From positions 1 through 64,000 of IMG/VR virus record IMGVR_UViG_3300050821_024084: DNA of 64,000 nt; one strand, given 5' to 3'. The translations under genes were made by a program, and so were the position numbers. Shown here piece by piece: positions 2,058 to 64,000 of the stretch (position 1 is the first letter of the stretch; every line of letters begins with the position of its first letter). The notes under the pieces are model-generated. The model saw nothing but the letters and a program-made list of their open reading frames with translations. It had not been told where the DNA came from and did no database searches. This DNA comes from a virus.

Positions 2058-2089
2058 GAGGCCCCCGGCAGCATGCTGCCGGGGGCCTC
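2058..2089. promoter_or_regulatory. Perfect 32-bp palindrome between the array and the primase gene
   Basis: GAGGCCCCCGGCAGCATGCTGCCGGGGGCCTC. Confidence 0.6.
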
Positions 2090-2123
2090 ATCTCGTACTT
2101 TCCACCGTACGCAAGGAGTCTAC

Positions 2124-4733
2124 ATGCCCGTCACGCCGTTCCGCAACTCCGGCCCGGAACCGGTCCCGATGGACACGCCCTTCGAGATCCCCGGCTGGTT
2201 CCGGTTCACCTGGTGCCGGTGGAACCACACGACGCGGAAGGCAGGCAGGGACCGCGACGGGCAGACCCGGATCAGGTACATCAAGAAGTTCGCGCTGGAA
2301 GGGGAAGTCGAGAGCTACGCGTACGGCACGTTCTGCGCGTTCCCCCGCGAGATGGACACCCAGCCGGGTCTCATCTGCGCGCCGCATGCGCGCTTCCTGG
2401 TCGCGGAGTGCGACGACGATGATGAGTTCGATCTCTCCCTGCTCGGAGACAATCCCGTCCCGACCGTGCGGTCCTCGCGAGGGTTCCACTACTACCACGC
2501 GGTCCCGCCGGAGCTGACGCACCTGATGCCAACCGACGGCCCGCTGCCGGGCGGGGATCTCCAGACGGCGGGCTTCGTGCCCGCGCCGGGCTGCACGCAC
2601 CCGTCCGGCGCGATCTACACGCTGGTGTCGGATCATCTCCCGGTAGCGGACGAGGCGATGCTGCTGCGGCTGCGCGCTGCCCGCACCCGGCAGAACGAGC
2701 GCCAGCGGGAGGTCTACCGCGAGCGCGGCGGGACGGGGGGCTACGACGGCTCAGGGATCAACGGGCAGGACGATTACCTGGCGAAGGAGATCTGCTGGAA
2801 GCTCGTCGCGCAGGGCCTGCCGGAGGCCGGGGTCCGGGAGATCTGGGAGCGGGAGGCTGCTCAGCTGCCGCTGGCCGACCCGTCCGATCCTTTCACCGGC
2901 GATGATTTCACCCGGCATTACGCAGGCGCGATGCGGAAGTACGCCCGGATGCAGGAGCGCGAGGCAGCTCCTGTGCGAGCGCTGACGAGCTGGAAGCCTA
3001 TGATAGCGGCTGCTGAGGAGAGCGAGGAAACCGTGACTGACGAGCCGTTCCCGCCGTCGCCGTTCCGTCCGGGCGCGGGCGCGTTCCGCATCAGCGACGG
3101 CCAGGTGGTCGAGGAGGTGCTGCTCCGCAAGGGCAAGGACATCCGGCTGGTCGCGTACTGCCCGATGTATGTCTCGCGGAGGATGTTCGACGACAAGGGC
3201 GAGATCCAGTACGAGATCTCCTGGAAGGCATACGACGGCCAGCTCATGCGCAGCTGCGCGACGGCGGCGGACATCCGCAATCACACCCGGCTCCTGACGG
3301 TGTTCCCGGAGGCTGTGGTGACCTCGACCGAGGCTCCGGCGCTGAGCAGGTACCTCACGAAGTACATCCAGGTGCATGCCGACGTCCTGCATGCGAATCA
3401 GGTGCGGATCGCCACCTCGCTGGGGTGGCAGAGCGGCACCGACTTGTTCGTGTCCGGCGACGGGCGTCCGTGCCAGGTGCAGGACACCGCGAATCTGGGG
3501 CGCTGGATGAGCGGTCATCAGGCATCCGGCTCACTGGAGACCTGGCGGGCGGCTCTGGAGCGCGCGCCGTGGCGGGTGCTCGTGCTGACCGCAGGCGCAT
3601 GTGCTGCTCCGCTGCTGAACATCCTTCAGGTCAATGGCTTCATCGTCAGCAACTCAGGGGAGACCACCCGGGGCAAGACGCGGGCGGCCCGGGTGGCGGC
3701 TAGCGTCTGGGGTAATCCCGAGGAGACTGTGCTCAGCTGGAGCGCCACGCGCGTCGCCCTGGAGCGCTACGCAGCGTCAGCACGAGGCGTGCCGCTCGTG
3801 GTGGATGACTCCAAGCTGGCGCGCACCGGGAACCAGATCGCGGAGATCATCTACCAGATCGCGTCGGGCACGTCGACCAGCAAGTCGGAGCGCTCGGGAG
3901 CGCGGCTCCAGGAGACGTACATCATCCGCACGGTGATGATCACGAACGGTGAGCAGCCGCTGCTGAGCGCGAGTGAGCACAGTGATGGCGGGGCGGCGGC
4001 TCGCGTGATCGAGATCTGGGGGCCTCCGTTCGAGTCTGCGGACCAGGCGGACATGCTGGACAGCGTGGTGACCGAGCATCACGGGCTGGCGGGCGAGCAT
4101 TTCGTGACCTGGCTGCTCGGCCTGGATGCGGAAGACATCCGCGCACGGTACCGGACCTTGCGCGAGAAGACCCAGGCTTCCGCGCAGACGGACGTCGCGC
4201 GCCGGCGGGGCAGTGCGATCGCCGTGCTGCGGCTGGCGGCGGAGCTGGCACATGAAGCTGGCCTCCTGCCGGAGATCGCCGAGGAACACTGGACCGAGAT
4301 CATTGCAGAGCGACCGGGTGAGGAGGGCTCTGATGATCTGCCTCGGGAGGCGCTGGAGAAACTCTGGCGTGAGGTGATGATGAACCGGAACATCTTCTGG
4401 GAGCCCCGTGACGGAGCAGGGCTCGCCTCCCAGGCGGTCCGGGGGCTCATCCCCGCCGGAGGGTTCGCTGGCCGGCTGGAGACTGAGAAGAACTGGGTGG
4501 CCGTCCGCCCGGAGTGGCTGAAGGACTTCCTGAAGAAGCACGGGCATGAGGCGGAGGGTGTCATCCGCAGCTGGGCGGAGCGCGGGTGGGTGGCTCAGAC
4601 GAAAGAGGGGAAGCGCACTATCCCGACACGGATCGCGGGCGGGTCGCCGGTAAAGCTCATCAAGGTGACCGAGCTTCCCGAAGGCGTCAGCAATATCGGC
4701 GAGGATCTTCTGCGAGACAGCGAAGATCTCTGA
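2124..4733 (+). CDS. Bifunctional primase/polymerase (AEP Prim-Pol) fused to a DUF927/Cch-like helicase
   Basis: TVRSSRGFHYY and GFVPAPGCTHPSGAIY Prim-Pol motifs; SLGW, Walker A SGETTRGKT, Walker B LVVDDS, ITNGE, ARVIEI, EHHGLAG helicase motifs; RBS AAGGAG before ATG 2124. Confidence 0.85.
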   Translation: MPVTPFRNSGPEPVPMDTPFEIPGWFRFTWCRWNHTTRKAGRDRDGQTRIRYIKKFALEGEVESYAYGTFCAFPREMDTQPGLICAPHARFLVAECDDDDEFDLSLLGDNPVPTVRSSRGFHYYHAVPPELTHLMPTDGPLPGGDLQTAGFVPAPGCTHPSGAIYTLVSDHLPVADEAMLLRLRAARTRQNERQREVYRERGGTGGYDGSGINGQDDYLAKEICWKLVAQGLPEAGVREIWEREAAQLPLADPSDPFTGDDFTRHYAGAMRKYARMQEREAAPVRALTSWKPMIAAAEESEETVTDEPFPPSPFRPGAGAFRISDGQVVEEVLLRKGKDIRLVAYCPMYVSRRMFDDKGEIQYEISWKAYDGQLMRSCATAADIRNHTRLLTVFPEAVVTSTEAPALSRYLTKYIQVHADVLHANQVRIATSLGWQSGTDLFVSGDGRPCQVQDTANLGRWMSGHQASGSLETWRAALERAPWRVLVLTAGACAAPLLNILQVNGFIVSNSGETTRGKTRAARVAASVWGNPEETVLSWSATRVALERYAASARGVPLVVDDSKLARTGNQIAEIIYQIASGTSTSKSERSGARLQETYIIRTVMITNGEQPLLSASEHSDGGAAARVIEIWGPPFESADQADMLDSVVTEHHGLAGEHFVTWLLGLDAEDIRARYRTLREKTQASAQTDVARRRGSAIAVLRLAAELAHEAGLLPEIAEEHWTEIIAERPGEEGSDDLPREALEKLWREVMMNRNIFWEPRDGAGLASQAVRGLIPAGGFAGRLETEKNWVAVRPEWLKDFLKKHGHEAEGVIRSWAERGWVAQTKEGKRTIPTRIAGGSPVKLIKVTELPEGVSNIGEDLLRDSEDL

Positions 4734-9593: not shown

Positions 9594-10121
9594 TCACGCG
9601 CTGATGGCCTCGGGCGGGGCGGTGGCAAGCACGTGCTTGCGGGCGTACTCCCGCCCTGCGTGGCGCGCAGCGCGCAGCGTGCGCTCGTCCACGGCACGGG
9701 CGCGGGTAGCTGCCTGGACCGGGGCCGGACGCACAGCCTCCCCGGTCCGGATCTCGCCGGCCACCCCCTGCGCGAATCCCTCGATCGCTGCGCGGGTGGC
9801 CCGCGTGATGTCGTAGGAGTTGGCCGGGGCGGAGCCGGATGCCTGCGCCTGCTTCTGCTCCTTGCGGATCTCGCTGCGACGGCGGGCGGCGAAGTCCTCG
9901 GCTGCCTTGCTGACCTGCTCCCACAGCTCCTCCAGACGGGTGAAGCCGGCATCGGCAGAGACAGTGATCTCGACGGTGACAGGCTGGCCCGAGGTGGAGC
10001 GCGTGGTGCCCTGGGTCAGGCGGGCTTCGGCTCCCAGCGCCGTAGCGAGGGTGTGGTAGGCGTAGGCTCTCGCGACGCCGTGACCTCCGGCAGCGTCGAG
10101 TTCCTTCTGGTGAACGGACAT
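9594..10121 (-). CDS. Hypothetical protein, apparent paralog of 31125-31994
   Basis: 175 aa, RBS GGAG, upstream TATACT. Confidence 0.7.
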   Translation of the reverse strand: MSVHQKELDAAGGHGVARAYAYHTLATALGAEARLTQGTTRSTSGQPVTVEITVSADAGFTRLEELWEQVSKAAEDFAARRRSEIRKEQKQAQASGSAPANSYDITRATRAAIEGFAQGVAGEIRTGEAVRPAPVQAATRARAVDERTLRAARHAGREYARKHVLATAPPEAISA

Positions 10122-10215: not shown

Positions 10216-10542
10216 GTGACCCCGCTTGTCATTGCCCTGACCATTACCGGATTTCTCCTGGTAATGGGGCTCGTGTTCTTTGTCCTGTGCAGCAGGAAAG
10301 TGTGGCTCGGGGTGACGCCCTATGAGCTGAGAAAAGTGCGGTGCCGCCATTGCTCCGGCGGTATCCAGGCGCTCCTGACCCGGGAGGACGGCGAGCTGGC
10401 CTGGGGGAAGATCCCGCCGTTCCTGCTCCAGCTGGTGCGAGACGGGGGGGATGACATCCATCGCCCCCCGCTCGCTAACATCCGCAAGTGCTCGAACTGC
10501 GCGGGGATGGGCAGCACGCTCCACCCGAAGGACGGGAGCTAG
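10216..10542 (+). CDS. Membrane-anchored zinc-finger protein
   Basis: N-terminal TM helix; CRHCSGG and CSNCAGMG (DnaJ-like CxxCxGxG). Confidence 0.6.
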   Translation: MTPLVIALTITGFLLVMGLVFFVLCSRKVWLGVTPYELRKVRCRHCSGGIQALLTREDGELAWGKIPPFLLQLVRDGGDDIHRPPLANIRKCSNCAGMGSTLHPKDGS

Positions 10543-11126
10543 AGCGCCTGCGCGGCAGCCTCGATGAAGGCGACGGAACTCTCCGGGAAAAGCGCAGCCT
10601 CCGCCGTGGACTCGAATCGCGTCTCCATTCCCGCGATGCGATGCGGATCCGTGATGAAGAACGGCGGCATGGGATCCATGCCGCCCACGTCGCAGTACAC
10701 TCCGGTGGTGCCGTCCTCGCGCGTGAAAATGCAGATGGTGTCGTTTATTGCCTGGACACCTGCGCGGAACGGGAGAACGCGGATTTCCGTCTCCGGGCGC
10801 TCGGCGCAGTACGTCAGGTGCTCCAGCTGACGCCTGAGAACAGGGATACTGCCGGGACTCCGGCGCAGCACAGCCTCATCCAGGATGTAGAGCGACCGCA
10901 TCTTCGGCATCCGCGCTGCTTGCACGACCTGACGCTCCAGGCGCTTGTCTACGGCTTGCCGCATGAGAGCTTCCTCCTCAGGGAGGGTGGAAGCTGTGAC
11001 TGTCTCAGCGTACTCCCTGGTCTGGAGCAGGCCCGGCACTATTCTCTCGGCGTATACGCGTATTGCTGACAGGCTGGCTTCCATGCCCGCATAGGCGAGA
11101 TAGATCGTGTCCAGCTCTTTGCCCAT
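10539..11126 (-). CDS. Stand-alone DUF5753 domain protein (actinobacterial XRE-associated sensor domain, no HTH)
   Basis: EASLSAIRVY..IVPGLLQTREYA, ILDEAVLRR, RRQLEHL, IRVLPF, ALFPESSVAFI. Confidence 0.85.
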   Translation of the reverse strand: MGKELDTIYLAYAGMEASLSAIRVYAERIVPGLLQTREYAETVTASTLPEEEALMRQAVDKRLERQVVQAARMPKMRSLYILDEAVLRRSPGSIPVLRRQLEHLTYCAERPETEIRVLPFRAGVQAINDTICIFTREDGTTGVYCDVGGMDPMPPFFITDPHRIAGMETRFESTAEAALFPESSVAFIEAAAQAL

Positions 11127-11140
11127 TCCGGTGCTTCTCC

Positions 11141-11731
11141 TTACTTCTTCAGCGTGAGGGTGATCGTGCCCGTCACCCACGCCCTGGCGGTGGCGACCGA
11201 CGGGTTTGCGTTCTGCGACATGTTGCAGGTCCCGTCCTTCAGCTTCGGCATCTTGCCGGAGAAGCCCACGTCAACCTGGGCGGTCCCCGTCGCCCCGGCG
11301 AACCTGCCGGTGCTCTTCGCGCCGTCGATCCTCGCGTTCACGATGGTTGTGTCCGCGATGTCACAAGCGCTCTTCGCCCCGATGTAGGTCAGCCTGCCGT
11401 TCTCCGGGACGGAGGTCACTGTCAGCTCCAGCGTGCCGTTCCTGGTCGGGAATGCGTGCATCTGACCGGGTTCCGGGCCGCTGCCGCCCGGTGTGAACGA
11501 TCCTGCCGTGTCCACGGGACCGGCGTAGCGCAGCACGAACGCGGGAGGATCGACGAGAGCGGCCTTGCCGGCGACGTCCCCCGTGAAGATCTCCGTGGAG
11601 GAGGTGGTCGCCGGGGCGGTGTGAGACGGGCGGGCAGGCGTGACCTTCGCGGGTGACGATGCGGAGCTGCATGCAGCGGTGAGAGCGGCTGCGGCGATCA
11701 CGACGGACGTGCTGATGATGATGGTTTTCAT
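11141..11731 (-). CDS. Lipoprotein
   Basis: Signal peptide with lipobox LTAAC, followed by an S/T/P linker. Confidence 0.7.
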   Translation of the reverse strand: MKTIIISTSVVIAAAALTAACSSASSPAKVTPARPSHTAPATTSSTEIFTGDVAGKAALVDPPAFVLRYAGPVDTAGSFTPGGSGPEPGQMHAFPTRNGTLELTVTSVPENGRLTYIGAKSACDIADTTIVNARIDGAKSTGRFAGATGTAQVDVGFSGKMPKLKDGTCNMSQNANPSVATARAWVTGTITLTLKK

Positions 11732-12473: not shown

Positions 12474-12721
12474 CAGGCTCCTCCTCCGTCACGTGGCGTG
12501 ATCGCTTTTGCTTCTCGGGCGGCTGCTTCTGCGAGGCAGGCCGCGTAGCCCTCGCCATACGCTTCCAGGCGGAACCGGCTCTCCAGACGCACATTCAGCT
12601 CCATGAGGACGTTCTCCAGCGCCTCGCGCCCGTTGTCCCGGACGAGGACGGCGCTGCCCTGCCGTTCCCGGAGGACGTCCTCGATCTTGCGCATGCTCCG
12701 GCGGATCTCATACAGGTCCAT
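12473..12721 (-). CDS. Small hypothetical protein
   Basis: ATG 12721 (MDLYEIRR) after GGAGGAAG. Confidence 0.55.
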   Translation of the reverse strand: MDLYEIRRSMRKIEDVLRERQGSAVLVRDNGREALENVLMELNVRLESRFRLEAYGEGYAACLAEAAAREAKAITPRDGGGA

Positions 12722-12806
12722 GTCTCTTCCTCCCTGCACGGCGCTGCGTAAACGCGCACCGTGCCCTAAGTATACCTTAAGGCACGGTGCTACGTAAACA
12801 GCTAGA

Positions 12807-13298
12807 CTAGGCATAGATGTCCTGAGCGGCCCGGACCGACTGGTCGCAGTCCAGCTGATGCGGCAGCCGGTTCTCCGTGTCGGGCCACAGCACCTGAAGG
12901 CGCGGGACCGGCTCCTCGTACCAGGCGTCCGAGATGCCGAACGGGATTGCTGCGTAGGCGAGGTGCACTTTCTGGAACAGCACCTCGTAGCTATCCGGGA
13001 GCAGCCCCGCCACGCGCTCACCGTCGTGGTAGTGACGACGGTAGTCGCTGATCTGCTCCACGGCCCGGGAGAGGATGTGATGCCCGCCCTCCGGCGGCAG
13101 CCCGACGATCACCAGCTCCGGATGCTTCCAGCTCTTGTGCAGCCCGATGGTGTACGCGAACTGCGGTGATCCGGTTCCCGGGTCGTCGAAGACCCCGACG
13201 CAGTGCCAGCCGTAGCGGCGGACTGATTCTGACACGCCGTGCAGGATCACCTCCTGAGACGGGTGCGTGCAGCGGTCATCATGGGCGTGCGCGGTCAT
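12807..13298 (-). CDS. DUF4262 domain protein
   Basis: VRRYGWHCVGV..FAYTIGL..HPELVIVGLP..LQVLWPDTENRLP. Confidence 0.85.
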   Translation of the reverse strand: MTAHAHDDRCTHPSQEVILHGVSESVRRYGWHCVGVFDDPGTGSPQFAYTIGLHKSWKHPELVIVGLPPEGGHHILSRAVEQISDYRRHYHDGERVAGLLPDSYEVLFQKVHLAYAAIPFGISDAWYEEPVPRLQVLWPDTENRLPHQLDCDQSVRAAQDIYA

Positions 13299-14422
13299 GA
13301 AAAGGTCCTTTCAGGCTGCGGGAGCGCGATTCCTGCTCCCTTCAGGCGCATGCGGATATGCCGGATCAGCACCATCAGGTCGTCACAGTAGACGGACACA
13401 TGATCATAACCGTGCCCGTCGCTTTTCCAGCGATTCGGGTAGTACCCCCCGCCGCATTCATAGAACAGCGGGCACATCCGGCATTCTGCGCAGGGGCCGG
13501 GCGGGGTGAACAGCGGGTGCGCCAGGATCTCGTCAACCGAGTGCGTGCGGATGTTCATCCCGGTGGAGAACACTTCTGTCCCGCCTATGACCCGGAGCGC
13601 GTCCAGGCCCTCGGCGGAGCCGTCCGGCTGGATCACGACAGATTTCTCGTCCGGGGGACGTCCGATGAAGCCAGCTCGGACATCGCGGCCGAGTATCCGT
13701 GACATGAGGATGTGAAACAGCCGGATGTCGGGAGCGCCTTTGTCCAGATACCACGCGTCGAACACCCGTGCGAGCCACTCCCCGGTCCCGGGCTGCGGCG
13801 GATTGTCCCAGGTCGCCAGCGGGAACAGGAAGTCCATGTGCGCGGGTTCCTCGGCACGCAGCGCCCGGTAGACGGTTTCCGGGTCGTTCGAGGGGTCGAT
13901 CACTGCAAGGAGGCCGCCGTACATGTGGCGGAACTCGGGGCGGCGCAGCAGCTCCAGGCCCCGGCGTGTCTCGGCAGCCGACTCGCGCAGGGCCGGGAAC
14001 AGGCGCTTGCGATTTGCCGCGTCGTCACCGTCAATGCTGACCCCGAAGCCCAGCGGGTAGCGGGAGAACTGCCGGAGAAGGTCTTCCGTGAGCAGCGTGG
14101 CGTTGGTCTGCATGCCGTACGTGACCGTGCATCCGGGCGGTACGGCGGAGCGGATCGCGGTCATGACCTCGGTGATCCGCTCCGCCCCCGCCAGGAGCGG
14201 CTCTCCCCCGTGCAGCAGGATGCTCATCCGGTCCAGATCGTGTGTCCGGACGTGCTCAGCTATCTCATGTGCAGCTGCCGCCAGGGTCCCGGGCTCAGTG
14301 AAGAGCGGCTGCCGTCGCCAGGCTTCCTGCTCTTCCAGCTCGTACATGTAGCAGTACGTGCATCTCAGATTACAGCGTGCGGCAAGCTTGAGTATGACCT
14401 CAGCAGCGCGGGGGGGACTCAT
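13295..14422 (-). CDS. fxsB: FxsB-family radical SAM/SPASM peptide maturase (cyclophane-forming)
   Basis: ILKLAARCNLRCTYCYMYE, LLHGGEPLLAG, QTNATLL, GVSIDG, DFLFPLATWDNPP, SPASM CAECRMCPLFYECGGGYYPNRW...SVYCDDL. Confidence 0.88.
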   Translation of the reverse strand: MSPPRAAEVILKLAARCNLRCTYCYMYELEEQEAWRRQPLFTEPGTLAAAAHEIAEHVRTHDLDRMSILLHGGEPLLAGAERITEVMTAIRSAVPPGCTVTYGMQTNATLLTEDLLRQFSRYPLGFGVSIDGDDAANRKRLFPALRESAAETRRGLELLRRPEFRHMYGGLLAVIDPSNDPETVYRALRAEEPAHMDFLFPLATWDNPPQPGTGEWLARVFDAWYLDKGAPDIRLFHILMSRILGRDVRAGFIGRPPDEKSVVIQPDGSAEGLDALRVIGGTEVFSTGMNIRTHSVDEILAHPLFTPPGPCAECRMCPLFYECGGGYYPNRWKSDGHGYDHVSVYCDDLMVLIRHIRMRLKGAGIALPQPERTFS

Positions 14423-14462
14423 GAGAGCAGATCCTTCCGGTGGCCAGAGGAGTAAGGGGAGC

Positions 14463-14696
14463 TCAGCCGGGCAGGGCGGCTGAGAACGTATACGTACCGT
14501 TCCCGCAGGTCATGGGCTCGACGTCTGCGTCGAGGATGCGCTCCAGGGGTGTCTTCCCGGAGCTGAGCGTGTTCAGCGGGTAGATATCGCTGGAGACGAA
14601 GGAGTTCGTGCTCATCTTCCCGGCACGTGCCGTGGCGCGCTCCCCGGGTGCAGCCGAGTTGAAGGTGTAGGCGGACAAGGAGGTGTTGATGCTCAT
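14463..14696 (-). CDS. fxsA: FxsA-like (FxSxx-COOH) RiPP precursor peptide, 77 aa
   Basis: Leader-like TPLERIL, C-terminal YTFSAALPG, plus N-terminal YTFNSAAPG; immediately upstream of fxsB; RBS GGGAGGG. Confidence 0.75.
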   Translation of the reverse strand: MSINTSLSAYTFNSAAPGERATARAGKMSTNSFVSSDIYPLNTLSSGKTPLERILDADVEPMTCGNGTYTFSAALPG

Positions 14697-14770
14697 GGTG
14701 CCCTCCCGGGGCTTGACAGGTGATCTGCGGACTGCTAGCATCATCCTGAGGGGTTTGGCTGCGGTGGTGA

Positions 14771-14802
14771 AGCGGGGCGGCGCGATGAGAGCCGCCCCGC
14801 TT
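14771..14802. terminator. GC-rich hairpin upstream of the RiPP operon
   Basis: AGCGGGGCGG...CCGCCCCGCT. Confidence 0.5.
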
Positions 14803-15659: not shown

Positions 15660-16184
15660 TCACTCCGTCTCCGACATAACTATCATGGCTGCGACAGATG
15701 CTACGATTCCTATGATCCCGATGATCACAAGGGGCAGCCAGATCGCGAGACCGAGGGCGGTGCCTGCCACGGAGCCCTTGCCGGCGGGGATGGAGGCCAT
15801 GACTACCCCCGGCACGATGGCAGCGAGCAGGGAGAAGGTGATCCCCCCGAGCCCGACGGGCAGGAACACCTGCGGCTTGCTCCACGTCACGCGACGCAGC
15901 CGGGCACGTATCCGGGCCTCGGGCGGGGCGTCCGCCGGCACCCCCTCTTCCGCGAGGTCCGCGAGCTGCTTGCGGAGGTCATCCTCCACCTTAGCCACCA
16001 GGATCTTCGCGCGCCGCTGCTCGCCTTCCTCCTCCGTCAGGTAGCCGTGCGCGATGTTGTAGCCGAGCCGGTCGATCGCCTTGTTCCGGTGCTGGTGCCC
16101 GATGCGGCGCTCCGGCTCGATCGCGCGCTGACGCGGGTAGCCCCCGTCTTCGTAGCCGTAGGGGTTGTGGTAGTCCGCTTTCAT
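15660..16184 (-). CDS. DUF1707 (SHOCT-like) membrane protein
   Basis: RIGHQHRNKAIDRL..AHGYLTEEE..R..A...DL...LADL plus two TM helices. Confidence 0.8.
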   Translation of the reverse strand: MKADYHNPYGYEDGGYPRQRAIEPERRIGHQHRNKAIDRLGYNIAHGYLTEEEGEQRRAKILVAKVEDDLRKQLADLAEEGVPADAPPEARIRARLRRVTWSKPQVFLPVGLGGITFSLLAAIVPGVVMASIPAGKGSVAGTALGLAIWLPLVIIGIIGIVASVAAMIVMSETE

Positions 16185-16357
16185 GAGGGTCCTTCCTCGT
16201 GGATGTGATAGTCGTCCGTGGATTCCCCGCACACGCGGCAGGGATGGCTGTGCTCATCTGTGCGATCGCAGTCCGGGCACAGCCCGAAGATCGCACGCAG
16301 GAGACGCGCCCCCGGATCCCCCGGGTCCAGAGGCGGCGTCCATCCTTCTTCCATCTC

Positions 16358-17588: not shown

Positions 17589-17903
17589 TCAGGCTTTGAG
17601 CGCTTTCCGGATCACGAGCACTTGCAGCATGGACGCCCCGGAGATCGCGAGCGCAGTCGTCCCGAACTCCAGAGGCGGCCAGCCCCCTACGAGCCAGGGC
17701 CGGAAGATGCCGGCTCCGATTGCAGCCAGCCACACGCTGGAGCAGAACGCGCAGCTGATCAGGTCGTACAGCCAGCGTGACCAGGGCTTTTTCCTGCTAG
17801 CGAGCCACAGCCGCAGCGGGGCGCTGATCTTCGCCTGACTGCCGATCTGCGCTACGGTGCCCACGTCGAGGGCGAGCACCGCCGCCTGGACGACGGGGTT
17901 CAC
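17589..17903 (-). CDS. DUF1360-like membrane protein
   Basis: PLR..LYDLISCAFCSSVW; hydrophobic segments. Confidence 0.7.
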   Translation of the reverse strand: MNPVVQAAVLALDVGTVAQIGSQAKISAPLRLWLASRKKPWSRWLYDLISCAFCSSVWLAAIGAGIFRPWLVGGWPPLEFGTTALAISGASMLQVLVIRKALKA

Positions 17904-18229
17904 TTGTCCTTCTCATAGATCTCCGGCGAGCCGCAGCACCAGCCCACCGTCAGCCCGAGATGAGCGTACTTCGCCTCCCAGACCCGGAAGATGTCCTCCG
18001 CCTCGGGGCGGCTGAGTTTCCCCGCCCAGAACCTCGCCTGGGTGACGCGGAACTCCTCCTCGGCTTTCTCGCGCTCGTCTTCCTGCTCCGCGAGCGCGCT
18101 GTCGATCTCCTCCAGGCAGCACGCCACCTCCTCGCTCAGCCCGGGGTTGCGCAGGTCAGCGGAGCTGGCAGGCTCCGTCTCTGCTGATTTCTCCGCTGGG
18201 CGCTTGACGTTTTTCTGGACGTTCTTCAT
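17900..18229 (-). CDS. Protein with Pup (prokaryotic ubiquitin-like protein)-like N-terminal half
   Basis: SSADLRNPGLSEEVACCLEEIDSALAEQ resembles the Pup helix (LxDDVDxxLDEIDxVLEEN); no terminal GGE/GGQ. Confidence 0.55.
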   Translation of the reverse strand: MKNVQKNVKRPAEKSAETEPASSADLRNPGLSEEVACCLEEIDSALAEQEDEREKAEEEFRVTQARFWAGKLSRPEAEDIFRVWEAKYAHLGLTVGWCCGSPEIYEKDK

Positions 18230-18730
18230 GCTCGGTCCTTCCTCCCTCGGGATTGCGCTGAGTGCGCATACCCGCGCACGGCGTGACCGCGCGCGAGCAA
18301 ACGGGCTCAGGGCCGCAGCCACCAGTGGTTGTCTACGCCCAGACCCTGGAGCAGTGTCCGGGGGTCGGAGCCTGGTCCGGTGTCCGCGTTGGGCGCGTTG
18401 CCGTTGCTGAAGCTCTTGTCCATGTGCGATCCTTCCTCGCGGGGGACATAGCAAGGTAAATTTGCTGTTGCGTACGGTACCCAGTATACCCCCTAGGGGG
18501 CGTCCGGCTGTTTACCTGCGGCATTCGGGTGCTCCCGCACGCTGGCGAGACGCAGCTGGAAGCGCCGCGTGCGCCCGGTGTCGGGGTAGGTAACGGAGAT
18601 TTCCACCAGATTAGGCGTGAGAGGCGTTACCGTGATATCGTCACCGGTAACGCCCTCGGGGGCTCCGGGGAAGTACGGCAGGAGCGCGAGGGCGTTCCGC
18701 AGGTACTCCCGGAGCCAGTCATGCAGCGGG

Positions 18731-59790: not shown

Positions 59791-60123
59791 ATGACCAGCG
59801 CGGGAGGCGCGGTCACGATGTCCCGGCTGTCGCTCCAGTACGTGTCCGTCCCGGTGCAGGCGTACAAGGGGGGCACGGTCTACAATCCCACGAATGACGT
59901 GGTGGAATTCGCCTTCGTACAGAATTACGGGACGGTGCCGTCCAGCTGGGCGGCGGGCAGCTGGGTATCGCAGCTGAATTACACGTATCCGTATGCGGCT
60001 CAGTGCCTGGTGGGGCCAGGCGGGGCGACGGCACCGACCACGGGGGTTTACAACATCTGGGTGCAGATCCAGGACGATCCGGAAGTCCCGGTGTTCATCG
60101 CCGGTCAATTGCAGATCATATGA
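59791..60123 (+). CDS. Hypothetical (probable virion) protein
   Basis: CLVGPGG...GVYNIWVQIQDDPEVPV. Confidence 0.6.
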   Translation: MTSAGGAVTMSRLSLQYVSVPVQAYKGGTVYNPTNDVVEFAFVQNYGTVPSSWAAGSWVSQLNYTYPYAAQCLVGPGGATAPTTGVYNIWVQIQDDPEVPVFIAGQLQII

Positions 60124-60139
60124 CGGGAAGGGGGCGGGA

Positions 60140-63100
60140 ATGGCGCGTCGCTCCACGCTGATGGCCGCGAAGTACATGCCGGGCGCGGCGTCCCCGACCT
60201 CCGCCCCGCAGAATGCGGGGGCTCCGTACTACGGGCTCGTGTCACCGCTGGCACAGCAGCTCGCGAATGAGCGGGGCTATTCTAATTCCTACGGGCCGTT
60301 CCTGCCGAGGCCCGCGCAGACATTTACTGAGGGCGCATTCGGGCCGTTCAGCCCGATTCTCCCGGTCCCGGTAGATGCGCCTCCCGTCGAAGACGGGCTG
60401 CCGGATCCCCGGCTGTTCGAGTACCAGGTCGGGTGGAACCTGCCGGTCGGGCAGCCGGGGACCGAGGGTCTCAAGCTAGTGGATTTCGCTACGCTGCGCA
60501 CGCTGGGGGATCTGTACTCGGTCGCGCGGGCGTGCATCGAGAAACGCAAGAACGAGATCACCGGCCTGGACTGGGATATCGTGCCGACGCACGAGGCGTC
60601 CAAGGCGTACCAGGGCGACCGGAAGGCCAACCGGGATCTGGGCGAGCGCATCGCCAAGGCGAAGAAGTTCTTCCGGCAGCCGGACCCGGACTACTTCTCG
60701 TTCGGGGAATTCCTCACTGCCGTGCTGGAGATGGTGTTCGTCTACGACGCGCTGTCTATCGTGCTGCGGCCTAAGCGCGGTAAGGGGATGGGCAAAGGGC
60801 TGCTCGGGTCGGATCTGGACTGCCTGGAGCTAGTTGACGGAGCCACTATTCGCCCGCTTTTGGGAATGCACGGAGAAATTCCGAGGCCGCCCTGCTATAG
60901 CGAGGACACGGAAATTCTCACCCGGGGCGGCTGGAAGCTGTTCAGCGATCTCAAGGGAACAGAAGAAGTTGCTACCCGCTCGAAAGACGGTGTGTTTGAG
61001 TGGCAGCGGCCCACGCATTACGTGAATGAGGCGTACACCGGTCCGATGGTGCAATTCTCCGGTCGCACTATTGACTGCCTGGTAACCCCTGATCACCGGA
61101 TGCTCACGACTGTAGGTCCTGACGGCTGGTCCGAGGCTAGCCGGGTGCGAGACAGTAAAGGACGGATCTGCGGTCATGCAGACGGTAAGGACGGGACTCA
61201 GCGGGAATGGATCACATCGGCGCAGCGTCTCCTGGAAAGAAAGCAGGCAGGCGCAAAAAAGGATGACCGGCTGGTAGCTGTCAGCTCGTGGCACGGGCGC
61301 GAGCTGCGGAGTGCCACGTTTACCGTCACGGGCCAGGTGTTTCGGTGGGACGATGGTGATGTGCATCGTGCAGAGGGACCGGAAATCCCTGCGGATGTGC
61401 GGGATCACTCAGTAGAGATGACGGGTGATCAGTACGCGGCCTTCATGGGCATGTACCTGTCTGAAGGCGGTCTCATCCACGACAGAGAAAAGCACGGCTA
61501 CCGGATTACCATCAGCCAGACCGCGAACGGAAAGGGAATCGCGGAGTACGGACAGCTTATCCAGGAGCTATTCGGTGATCTTCGGCGAGGCTCTGGCGGG
61601 TGGAATATCTGGAGGAAGGCGCTGTGGCGGTACTGCCATCAGTTCGGATACGCACCGGATAAGTTCGCGCCACCCGAAGTGCTTGATATGTCGCGGCGTC
61701 AGCTCAAGATATTCTGGAGGTACTACTGGCTAGGCGACGGGCATACGGAGCACACACAGGAGCAGGAAGTCGTGGCGACCTCCAGCTGTCTGATGGCGGG
61801 CGCGTTCCAGGAAATCATCCAGAAACTCGGGTACTCATCATCTGCTCGCCCTAGTGGTGATGGCTATTATCGCTTGCGTACACGGAAGACTGCCTATCCC
61901 GGGTATAACGCTAAGCAGGCTGATTACTCGGGGCGTGTTTACTGCGTGACGGTGCCGAATGGTATTGTTTATGTCCGGAGGAATGGCCGGGCGGTGTGGT
62001 CAGGAAATTCGCCCGCCTACCAGCAGTACCTTTACGGCGTGCCGCGCAGCGACTACATGACAATGATCACGCAGCGGGACATTGATGAAGGCGGCCTGGC
62101 CGGATCCGAGATCCAGTCGTTCACGTCGGATCAGCTGCTGTACCTGCGCACTACTCCCCGGCGCTGGACGCCGTATGGCTTCGCTAACCTGGAGCAGTCG
62201 CTCATCCCGGTGCTGACGGGGCTGCAAAAGCAGGCGTATCAGCTTGATTATTTTCGTGAGGGATGCTATTCTCCGGACACTGAGATTCTCACGAAAGATG
62301 GCTGGAAGCTCTTCCCGGACCTGACCTACGACGATGAGCTTGCTACTCGAAGCGAGCAGGGAGACTTCCGCTGGCATCGACCGGAAGCCATTCTTTCGTA
62401 CGACTTCGACGGGGAGCTGCTCGCTTTTCAGAGCAAGGCAGTAGATCAGCTTGTGACACCTGGTCACAGGATGATCGTGCAGCACCTGCCATCCTACGTG
62501 CGTGATCACCCGGCTACTCCGGAACATGGCTGGCACGTGCGGCTCGCGAAATATTTCGCCGAGCATCCAAGCGCCCAGTTCCAGATGCCGGCGACGTCTC
62601 GCTGGACAGGACCCGAGCCGGAGTACCAGGAAATCGACACCTGGCGCAAGGTCAAGCGGCAGTATGGTACGGAGAAGGCCATCACGTGGCTCCGCGAGCA
62701 CCTGGTGCCGGGTGAGTGGGCTCCGTCTGCGCAGGTGCTCAAGTCTGCTCAGGCAGCAGGCGTCGGGAGAAACTCTCTTGAGCGTGCGAAAGACGTGCTC
62801 GGGATACAATCACGACGCGTCGGCAGCACGCGCTCCGGAAGGGGAGTTTCTTTCTGGGAGATGCGTCTTCCTGCTGAAGACCTGGCTGTGCTGGAGCGCG
62901 CAGAGGAAATCCGTACGGGAAGCCGCCGGATCCCGATGAAGGAGTTCTGCGGGCTCCTTGGCCTGTATATCTCAGAGGGCTGGGTGCGATCAGATCGTAA
63001 TGATGTACTCATTGCCCAGCATGCGGATAATCCGCGTATCGAGCGTATTCGCGAGATACTGGACAGTACCGGGCTGCACTGGAGCTATCAGGAATCGAAC

Positions 63101-64000
63101 CAGAGATTCGCGGTGTGCAGCAAGGACCTCGCGCGCTGGCTTCGGGATAACTGCCCGGGACGGGCATGGGAGAAGCGCATTCCGGTTCGGTTCAAGAACC
63201 TCGGCCCGGAATGCCTCGCCGCTCTGATGGAGGGTCTGACACTCGGAGATGCGCATCTCGGCCCAGCTGGTCAGCGTTACTACACAACGACAAGCCCTGG
63301 TCTTGCAGACGATGTGCAGGAGATTTTCCAGAAGCTCGGGTGTGATGCCTGGATTCGCCAGACGAAGATGGAGAAGTATTTTTCTGGTGAATACGGTGAG
63401 ACTCCGTATGGCGGTCACGCGCGACGGCAGATGTATGTCGTCCGGGAACGGATGCAGGATGCTCATATGGTTCCTGCGCCTGTGCCTGTTTCGTACACCG
63501 GAAAAGTCTGGTGCGTGACTGTCCCCGGTGGGGTGGTCTATGTCCGGCGGAATGGTCGCGCTATCTGGTGCGGGAATACTATCCCCGGCATCTATATCAG
63601 CCCCGGGGACCCCAACATGACCCCGAATCAGATCCGGGAACTGCAAGACGCCCTGAACGCGATTGCCGGGGACCCCGCCTGGCATCACAAGGTCATCGTG
63701 CTGCCGCCCGGCTCCAAGACCGAGCCGCAGCGCCCGGTGGATCTCGCTGACCAGTTCGACGAGATCCTGATGACTGAAGTCTGCATGAACTTCGACATCA
63801 ACCCGATGGACCTGGGCATCGTCCCCAAGGTCAGCACTGCCGTCTCGCCGTTCGCGGCGCGTGAGATGGCGCAGGCATCCAAGACGGTGCACGAGCGGAC
63901 CGCGACCAAGCCGCTGCTGAAGTTCCTCTGCAACATCTTCGACTCCATCCTGCATCGCGTCTGCGGTCAGGATGATATGAAGTTCACGTTCGAGGGCCTG
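60140..64000 (+). CDS. Portal protein (truncated by the window end) with two inteins
   Basis: ATG 60140. YSVARACIE.R..EI.GLDWDI, YDALS, LELVDGATIRP, AYQQYLYG, QLLYL...PR.WTPYG..LEQ, QLDYFREG, KPLL motifs stay in one frame; follows the terminase. Confidence 0.88.
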   Translation, partial: MARRSTLMAAKYMPGAASPTSAPQNAGAPYYGLVSPLAQQLANERGYSNSYGPFLPRPAQTFTEGAFGPFSPILPVPVDAPPVEDGLPDPRLFEYQVGWNLPVGQPGTEGLKLVDFATLRTLGDLYSVARACIEKRKNEITGLDWDIVPTHEASKAYQGDRKANRDLGERIAKAKKFFRQPDPDYFSFGEFLTAVLEMVFVYDALSIVLRPKRGKGMGKGLLGSDLDCLELVDGATIRPLLGMHGEIPRPPCYSEDTEILTRGGWKLFSDLKGTEEVATRSKDGVFEWQRPTHYVNEAYTGPMVQFSGRTIDCLVTPDHRMLTTVGPDGWSEASRVRDSKGRICGHADGKDGTQREWITSAQRLLERKQAGAKKDDRLVAVSSWHGRELRSATFTVTGQVFRWDDGDVHRAEGPEIPADVRDHSVEMTGDQYAAFMGMYLSEGGLIHDREKHGYRITISQTANGKGIAEYGQLIQELFGDLRRGSGGWNIWRKALWRYCHQFGYAPDKFAPPEVLDMSRRQLKIFWRYYWLGDGHTEHTQEQEVVATSSCLMAGAFQEIIQKLGYSSSARPSGDGYYRLRTRKTAYPGYNAKQADYSGRVYCVTVPNGIVYVRRNGRAVWSGNSPAYQQYLYGVPRSDYMTMITQRDIDEGGLAGSEIQSFTSDQLLYLRTTPRRWTPYGFANLEQSLIPVLTGLQKQAYQLDYFREGCYSPDTEILTKDGWKLFPDLTYDDELATRSEQGDFRWHRPEAILSYDFDGELLAFQSKAVDQLVTPGHRMIVQHLPSYVRDHPATPEHGWHVRLAKYFAEHPSAQFQMPATSRWTGPEPEYQEIDTWRKVKRQYGTEKAITWLREHLVPGEWAPSAQVLKSAQAAGVGRNSLERAKDVLGIQSRRVGSTRSGRGVSFWEMRLPAEDLAVLERAEEIRTGSRRIPMKEFCGLLGLYISEGWVRSDRNDVLIAQHADNPRIERIREILDSTGLHWSYQESNQRFAVCSKDLARWLRDNCPGRAWEKRIPVRFKNLGPECLAALMEGLTLGDAHLGPAGQRYYTTTSPGLADDVQEIFQKLGCDAWIRQTKMEKYFSGEYGETPYGGHARRQMYVVRERMQDAHMVPAPVPVSYTGKVWCVTVPGGVVYVRRNGRAIWCGNTIPGIYISPGDPNMTPNQIRELQDALNAIAGDPAWHHKVIVLPPGSKTEPQRPVDLADQFDEILMTEVCMNFDINPMDLGIVPKVSTAVSPFAAREMAQASKTVHERTATKPLLKFLCNIFDSILHRVCGQDDMKFTFEGL
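60893..62008 (+). mobile_element. Intein 1 in portal (LAGLIDADG, 372 aa)
   Basis: CYSEDTEILT..., VTPDHRM, FMGMYLSEG, YWLGDG, ...VRRNGRAVWSGN followed by +1 Ser. Confidence 0.9.
62264..63577 (+). mobile_element. Intein 2 in portal (LAGLIDADG, 438 aa)
   Basis: CYSPDTEILT..., VTPGHRM, LLGLYISEG, LTLGD, ...VRRNGRAIWCGN followed by +1 Thr. Confidence 0.9.

Follow-up and report, generated by a model that had tools for sequence, protein, structure and literature searches.

Triceptides and the FxsB family of radical S-adenosylmethionine (rSAM) enzymes represent known chemistry, and the closest described systems are the FxsA/FxsB (MscA/MscB) and ChlA/ChlB(H) pairs, as represented in PMC11002830, PMC12912966 and PMC12636437 (Nguyen 2020; Morishita 2024; Ruel 2025). 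MscB, a characterized FxsB-family enzyme, forms Phe-C4 to Ser-Cβ links between residues i and i+2, while YhhB connects Tyr or His to Arg and HaaB/ScaB connect His or Tyr to Ala (PMC11002830). The HExxH domain is an α-ketoglutarate (aKG)-dependent β-hydroxylase that acts on the pre-formed cyclophane (PMC12636437). FxSxx peptides have been predicted to be toxins or alarm signals of actinobacterial conflict systems, coupled to AP-ATPase/TIR effectors (Kaur et al., 2020; PMC7159879). No phage-borne triceptide or FxsB-family case is described in the literature searched. Here, we report on a 64,000-nucleotide stretch of viral DNA (the window; positions 1 to 64,000 of IMG/VR record IMGVR_UViG_3300050821_024084), in which three co-directional minus-strand open reading frames (ORFs) occupy positions 12807-14696. 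Two of them, a precursor gene and an rSAM maturase gene, probably form a two-gene cassette for a triceptide-type RiPP (a peptide of ribosomal origin that is modified after translation). It would be accessory, ‘moron-like’ cargo, placed in the early arm on the minus strand of an uncultivated and apparently non-integrating actinophage of about 130 kb that probably infects soil actinomycetes.

The original prediction of a compact run of precursor, rSAM/SPASM and DUF4262 genes is borne out, as all three ORFs are found at these minus-strand positions. The precursor gene (14463..14696, minus strand; 77 amino acids plus stop, within a longest ORF that extends to 14744) lies upstream of, and 40 nt apart from, the gene for a 375-amino-acid radical SAM/SPASM maturase of the three-residue-cyclophane type (13295..14422, minus strand). 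The ATG of the third gene, encoding a 163-amino-acid DUF4262 protein (12807..13298, minus strand), overlaps the rSAM stop codon as ATGA at 13295-13298. A Shine-Dalgarno-like GGGAGGG (14701-14707, minus strand) precedes the precursor ATG at 14696 with a spacer of 4 nt, and the internal ATG at 14615 is directly abutted by GGGAAG with zero spacer. Owing to the sequence and spacing before 14696, the 77-amino-acid product is favoured over a start at 14615; 77 amino acids is also the length in public gene calls.

The maturase resembles FxsB along its whole length. It matches the FxsB model TIGR04269 over the full model length with 309.9 bits (2.3e-92), where the curated cut-off is 370 bits, and reaches 263 bits for YhhB (cut-off 445; match spanning the full length), 95 for XyeB (450) and 61 for GrrM (310). 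The remaining strong NCBIfam matches are all cyclophane-forming or peptide-modifying rSAM enzymes, and Pfam recognizes Radical_SAM and Fer4_12 domains only. Residues 2-360 align with the nearest solved structure, the rSAM domain of ChlB (9gm3; 4.4e-59). The CxxxCxxC motif (C17, C21 and C24) and the C-terminal SPASM-type cysteines (C314, C317, C323 and C346) are invariant in an alignment across the enzyme's own clade and bacterial FxsB. As controls, a bacterial long form and a short form score 585 and 452 bits against TIGR04269, and for three clade relatives of the window enzyme the scores are 318.7, 336.6 and 320.1 bits. In a quick IQ-TREE phylogeny of 59 rows, the window enzyme falls into a 15-row clade (Shimodaira-Hasegawa-like approximate likelihood ratio test, SH-aLRT, 94) that is sister to, and not placed within, the 41-row bacterial FxsB clade (98), inside which the HExxH-fused forms are monophyletic (100). 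Full-length homology to characterized members, together with an adjacent peptide carrying aromatic-x-X motifs, makes the enzyme a predicted member of the triceptide maturase class. Of the earlier identification as FxsB, the homology and the cysteines hold up, and membership in the curated family does not, because the score lies under the cut-off and the enzyme branches in a sister clade; judged by its sequence, it is FxsB-like in fold and probably in chemistry.

The precursor contains six Tyr/Phe-x-X motifs within its 77 residues (Y10-T-F12, F12-N-S14, F33-V-S35, Y39-P-L41, Y69-T-F71 and F71-S-A73). Four of these lie in two candidate cores: an N-terminal copy, YTFNSAAPG (residues 10-18; 14643..14669, minus strand), which combines Y-x-F with a canonical F-x-S-x-x, and the C-terminal YTFSAALPG-COOH (residues 69-77; 14466..14492, minus strand), which combines Y-x-F with F-x-A. 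An internal duplication with two candidate cores had been proposed, and it proves to be real: the two nine-residue segments reach a BLOSUM62 self-alignment score of 36, a value attained by 3 of 2000 peptide shuffles. When the core codons are aligned with one single-codon gap per copy, six of the eight aligned codons differ and all six changes are synonymous (an ungapped alignment gives three amino-acid differences instead), which suggests that the repeat is old and retained at the peptide level and speaks against a recent or accidental origin. Between the cores lies the leader motif TPLERIL (residues 49-55; 14540..14560, minus strand), a candidate recognition sequence. No Pfam family is matched by the precursor.

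A phmmer search of 1.84 billion representative proteins returned one true precursor relative, an 80-amino-acid peptide on a 128,348-bp contig, the same size as that recorded for an rSAM enzyme 81% identical to that of the window. The two peptides have their last 14 residues up to …TYTFSA in common, plus the terminal PG. The relative contains TPLE(R/Q)I three times as a module, as well as IYPFNSS at an internal site that corresponds to a degenerate IYPLNT in the window precursor. The leader motif TPLxxI(L) occurs in all four precursors of the phage clade, in one to three copies apiece, and resembles the (I/V)PLxx(L/M) of bacterial FxsA leaders. In the related phage G001, the precursor is 57 amino acids long, contains F-N-N, F-Q-S and F-N-S and ends in FNSDI-COOH, and thus has the F-x-S-x-x-COOH feature. 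In a further phage, G002 (IMGVR_UViG_3300027795_000039; L007:946-1386), a single ORF ahead of the rSAM gene fuses two leader-core modules. TPLGKI occurs in both; of their cores, one closes with …FSADI and has no stop codon behind it, and …GFNNNR is the C-terminal one. A search of IMG/VR with a degenerate DNA pattern drawn from the conserved core gave no match. On the available peptide sequences, the C-terminal core is conserved and an architecture of several cores appears to be a property of the clade, with this particular N-terminal copy private to the window phage.

The window belongs to a 101,021-bp IMG/VR ‘provirus’ record (G000) cut from a 131,096-bp contig by trimming 30 kb. G001, rated complete, measures 129,940 bp and carries direct repeats at its termini, and the right 52 kb of G000 are colinear with the right 51 kb of G001, gene for gene as far as G001's end, including a portal fusion, a protease-capsid protein and tail genes. 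On both sides of the cassette, genes at 2073-4733 (primase-helicase), 9594-10121 and 17589-18454 have homologues at 28.6-39.9 kb in G001. Neither a tyrosine nor a serine recombinase was found in G000, the complete G001 or G002. The ‘provirus’ label is therefore doubtful and looks wrong, given the lack of an integrase and the colinearity with a genome bounded by terminal repeats. From the similar sizes of 131,096, 129,940, 132,026 and 128,348 bp, the source contig would be phage genome throughout, and the trimmed part of about 30 kb would probably be its own left arm. Partial homologues of a conserved structural protein of the lineage in Streptomyces assemblies hint at the host, and the guanine-cytosine (GC) content of G002 (51%, as opposed to 63-65% in related phages) suggests a different host group for that phage.

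A survey of other phages had been suggested as a check, and related phages do carry the same precursor-rSAM pair. The conserved structural protein has 663 homologues, and six contigs contain both this protein and an rSAM enzyme of the clade; two of them were read as DNA and four were paired through identical recorded lengths, the values common to structural-protein and clade rSAM contigs being 128,348, 129,940, 108,564 and 186,052 bp. The contigs of the closest rSAM homologues are 128,348, 186,052, 108,564 and 56,160 bp long. At least six phage contigs therefore carry the pair, and most of the lineage is apparently without it. The cassette lies elsewhere in G001 (74.5-75.6 kb) and near the record end in G002; from these differing positions, it behaves as movable cargo. 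Between the two closest phages, the cassette shows 81% (rSAM) and about 70% identity, compared to 98% for the structural protein. In a collection of cultured phages, Megablast with the 12-16 kb segment found nothing, tblastn with the rSAM enzyme gave only matches of at most 28% identity, and tblastn with the protease-capsid protein found only a Thermoanaerobacterium phage fragment, so that within this collection the lineage appears to lack cultured relatives. Viral contigs scanned with a single sequence likewise gave no match.

The bacterial comparison set comprises at least 160 FxsB-like loci from metagenomes and species-representative Actinomycetota genomes, and all counts from it are among the matches listed. 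The matches listed are all bacterial-type FxsB, at most 43% identical to the window enzyme. Among the 150 classifiable loci, 62 encode long enzymes (rSAM plus about 400 amino acids) and 88 short ones; the 375-amino-acid enzyme lacking HExxH, which had been taken as exceptional, is thus ordinary. A peptide ending in F-x-S-x-x-COOH lies within 1 kb upstream at 58 of the 62 long-form loci and at 15 of the 88 short-form loci, and many bacterial short forms may use unrecognized precursors. Around seven long-form loci, the flanking genes include 8 ORFs for TIR-like FxsC, 6 for the FxsC C-terminal domain, 4 for AAC(3)-like proteins and 2 for SLATT. Among nine short-form loci (L135, L139, L140, L169 and L204 belong to the short-form group), five have a separate adjacent aKG-HExxH hydroxylase and six have FxSxx-TPR. 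The long-form control carries the aKG-HExxH domain at residues 597-764 (L156; TIGR04267, 184.8 bits). With this positive control, no TIGR04267 match, fused or adjacent, was found in G000, G001 or G002, and neither were matches to TIR-like FxsC (NF040588) or FxSxx-TPR (NF040586). The unusual feature is that the phages are without the hydroxylase, FxsC and FxSxx-TPR partners seen at the sampled bacterial loci.

In the mechanism we propose, the 77-amino-acid peptide would be the substrate of the rSAM enzyme, which would bind the peptide leader, probably via TPLERIL, and cleave S-adenosylmethionine reductively. The resulting 5'-deoxyadenosyl radical would take the Cβ hydrogen of residue i+2, after which this Cβ would join the aromatic ring of residue i to give three-residue cyclophanes at Tyr/Phe-x-X. 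Conservation points to the C-terminal motif pair first, and the TYTFSA segment would accordingly be the likeliest crosslink site; the N-terminal YTFNS copy and perhaps F33-V-S35 are further candidates. Since the cassette contains no hydroxylase, protease or exporter, the product is probably an unhydroxylated, ring-stapled peptide that would be kept in the infected cell unless host proteases or transporters act on it. The analysis itself establishes the gene structure, the homology, the clade, the phage setting, the conserved core and the missing bacterial partner genes; the pairing of enzyme and substrate, the crosslink sites, the chemistry and any biological role are put forward from these.

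Several observations weigh against a triceptide cassette of this kind. The enzyme falls under the curated FxsB threshold. The precursor ends in …FSAALPG-COOH and not in FxSxx-COOH, its F-N-S-A-A being internal (residues 12-16), and Ala takes the place of Ser at position i+2 of the C-terminal core. The peptides of the window, G001 and G002 match no NCBIfam family, the FxsA precursor models TIGR04268 and NF040585 included, at E-values up to 10, in a search with no bacterial FxsA control alongside. The N-terminal core copy is missing from the nearest relative, the 80-amino-acid peptide, and could be a decaying remnant. Furthermore, the clade members inspected as DNA number three, and the surroundings of the cassette show neither a leader protease nor an exporter, with no protease or transporter recognized among its neighbours by Pfam and PHROGs.

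The DUF4262 protein matches PF14081 at residues 26-152 with 98.9 bits (99.1 bits in a genome search), well above the gathering score of 28 bits. Its AlphaFold model, built from a 27-sequence alignment, has a mean predicted local distance difference test score (pLDDT) of 90, and G52, E61, G66, Q135 and W138 are invariant. The best Foldseek match of the model is SUFU (probability 0.99, E 3e-3), and VIA aligns 121 of its residues with 3k5j, a bacterial homologue of SUFU, at Z 7.8, the next unrelated row standing at Z 4.0 and five of the six top rows being SUFU. SUFU is hence the best structural match by two methods, at a sequence identity of 10-15% and a middling Z-score, and a PDB sequence search gave no match. 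The modelled SUFU-like fold would be that of a binding protein rather than a RiPP enzyme, and no function follows from it. PADLOC assigned the protein to no family, including its Shedu models, and a Shedu-like nuclease was rejected. The domain of Shedu is DUF4263. A Shedu preprint names DUF4262 as the hallmark domain (bioRxiv 10.1101/2023.08.10.552762), which is probably a slip for DUF4263, so that text searches for ‘DUF4262’ may mislead. Within Streptomycetaceae, DUF4262 is sporadic: 29 of 121 genomes have it, several times in a region at a chromosome end, and in a genome with both genes it is distant from the Fxs locus.

The cassette is framed by two hairpins read from the sequence. The upstream one (14770..14802, minus strand; GC-rich, with a 12-bp stem and a 9-nt loop) sits between the precursor and the stop codon of an upstream 265-amino-acid gene (14825); it is without a trailing T-run and is not a canonical intrinsic terminator, and none is listed there by a terminator scan. 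The downstream one (12755..12790, minus strand) follows the DUF4262 stop codon and is itself followed by a ribosome-binding site (GGGAGGAAG) and the ATG of the next gene at 12721. On the coding strand within the cassette, a consensus scan gave neither a canonical promoter nor a canonical terminator. The gene at 15660-16232, two genes upstream from the precursor, encodes a 190-amino-acid protein in which a DUF1707 SHOCT-like domain precedes hydrophobic segments that probably span the membrane; the protein has a weak homologue in G002. Just downstream of the cassette lie two overlapping genes, one for a DUF5753 protein (10539-11180; 118.6 bits) and one for a probable lipoprotein (11141-11731), the former running into the end of the latter; the lipoprotein has a signal peptide with a lipobox-like …TAACSS. 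PADLOC found no match among the cassette neighbours. Farther away, a single 2179-aa ORF runs from 59993-64000 on to position 66532 of G000, with portal, minor-head/Mu F-like, NUDIX-like and ParB-like matches alongside other domains, and a 933-aa ORF (G000 70216-73017) combines protease-like and capsid-like matches; for neither was a related cultured phage found in the collection.

Regarding the make-up of the cassette, the ‘provirus’ label and the trimming of 30 kb from the 131,096-bp contig would fit an artefact, i.e., misassembled host DNA or a cassette that lies in the host flank of a provirus. A chimera with host DNA had been named as what would overturn a phage origin, and it is not borne out. 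Phage backbone genes flank both sides, in synteny with the terminal-repeat-bounded G001; enzymes of the clade sit on other phage contigs of 108-186 kb; the bacterial homologues are distant; and the cassette does not differ from the phage in GC content, which is uniform across the region. An artefact is thus extremely improbable and was rejected. As to the number of working cores, it is conceivable, though not the version we favour, that only the C-terminal unit functions and that residues 1-27 are a decayed in-frame remnant, or that translation starts at 14615 to give a 50-amino-acid precursor. This would agree with the relative that is without the N-terminal copy, with residues 28-32 echoing the ORF start (MSxN) behind GGGAAG, and with the position of all conserved leader motifs after residue 36. 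Conversely, ribosome-binding site and spacing are better at the upstream ATG, all six codon differences of the gapped core alignment are synonymous, the first 27 codons are coding-like (GC content at third positions about 85%), and precursors built of several fused modules are seen again in G001, G002 and the 128-kb contig. The DUF4262 protein might be a third pathway component, namely a peptide-binding partner, a chaperone or a self-protection protein, a role to which the four-base overlap with the rSAM gene, the placement of three genes between two hairpins and the SUFU-like protein- or peptide-binding scaffold would lend themselves. We hold this to be improbable. The gene is missing from G001-G005, five viral records that are related or bear the rSAM gene, and from 160 FxsB loci of bacteria or metagenomes; tblastn found it at none of the 165 other comparison loci (both counts among the matches listed); the 128,348-bp sister contig contains no close homologue; it is sporadic and away from Fxs loci in Streptomycetaceae; and start/stop overlaps are routine in phage operons. 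Most likely it is a separate phage gene whose linkage is not conserved. Of the phage RiPP pathway originally proposed, the precursor and its cyclophane-type rSAM enzyme therefore stand, supported by phage synteny and by relatives with the pair, and the DUF4262 gene drops out.

The biological role of the precursor-rSAM pair is approached here by analogy. The peptide could resemble a host FxsA product and block, pre-empt or misdirect an Fxs-linked TIR/STAND conflict system, as the original prediction had imagined. In keeping with such mimicry, sampled bacterial loci carry TIR-like FxsC, FxsC C-terminal domains and SLATT (long form) or FxSxx-TPR (short form), FxSxx peptides are predicted toxins or alarm signals (PMC7159879), the phages retain peptide and cyclase alone, and the cassette has diverged far beyond the structural gene in the two closest phages. 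Yet the role of host Fxs loci in conflict is itself at the level of prediction (PMC7159879), ten bacterial FxsC/TPR neighbour proteins matched no PADLOC model, and a core unlike FxSxx-COOH that would undergo no β-hydroxylation makes an imperfect copy of the mature host product. Mimicry fits the context but is rather unlikely, and at least as unlikely is its more specific form, in which the ring-stapled peptide of a virulent-type actinophage would stand in for an FxsA-derived signal or toxin and so disarm or misfire a TIR/STAND-linked Fxs system. If true, no earlier RiPP would have served a phage as counter-defence, and the enigmatic Fxs system would gain a function open to testing. A bacteriocin-type weapon, exported to kill competitors of the infected or lysogenic cell, has precedent, since the biosynthetic clusters so far described on phages are mostly those of bacteriocins, carried by temperate phages (bioRxiv 10.1101/2020.10.01.322628). 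Such a use is very unlikely here, as the recombinase searches in G000, G001 and G002 argue against a bacteriocin that benefits a lysogen, the neighbourhood of the cassette contains no exporter, immunity gene or leader protease, and the cassette is embedded in a run of small early genes.

With the two-gene triceptide cassette as the preferred reading, a minimal pair that is relocated between genome positions and has diversifying cores in recombinase-free large actinophages suggests an intracellular use during infection. Because the bacterial relatives adjoin TIR-like, SLATT and STAND-type genes, the phage pair may offer a two-gene handle on the function of Fxs peptides. For enzymology, it would provide a cyclophane synthase that is compact, free of a hydroxylase by nature and coupled to an unusual core (…TYTFSA..PG). 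New here are a lineage member with a core other than FxSxx, the relocation of the cassette, the placement of the clade under the FxsB cut-off and the finding that DUF4262 is not a conserved partner.

Compared with prophage bacteriocin clusters such as sublancin on SPbeta, both consist of a ribosomal peptide and a maturation gene as phage cargo (bioRxiv 10.1101/2020.10.01.322628); those clusters are temperate and have export and immunity genes, whereas the cassette has no integrase, exporter or immunity gene beside it and its peptide would belong to the cyclophane class. With YhhB, XyeB/XncB, GrrM/OscB, HaaB/ScaB, HtkB and MicB, the window enzyme has in common the superfamily and the predicted aryl to Cβ chemistry from i to i+2. 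Several rings per precursor are usual in these systems, and a Tyr donor with an Ala acceptor is precedented (PMC11002830), although the model scores of the window enzyme are lower for these families and the leader and core motifs differ. In contrast to bacterial Fxs systems, the cassette is carried by phages without aKG-HExxH, FxsC and FxSxx-TPR, its enzymes form a separate sister clade (310-337 bits against 452/585 for the bacterial short and long forms), its precursors are several-core with partly duplicated modules, and the window core ends in …FSAALPG-COOH. The likeness to FxsA/FxsB and ChlA/ChlB(H) nevertheless runs through the whole pair, from full-length rSAM homology with the same cluster cysteines to a precursor directly upstream that has a PL-containing leader motif and aromatic-x-X near its C-terminus, and, with regard to FxsA/FxsB, the related G001 peptide ends in the textbook FxSxx-COOH.

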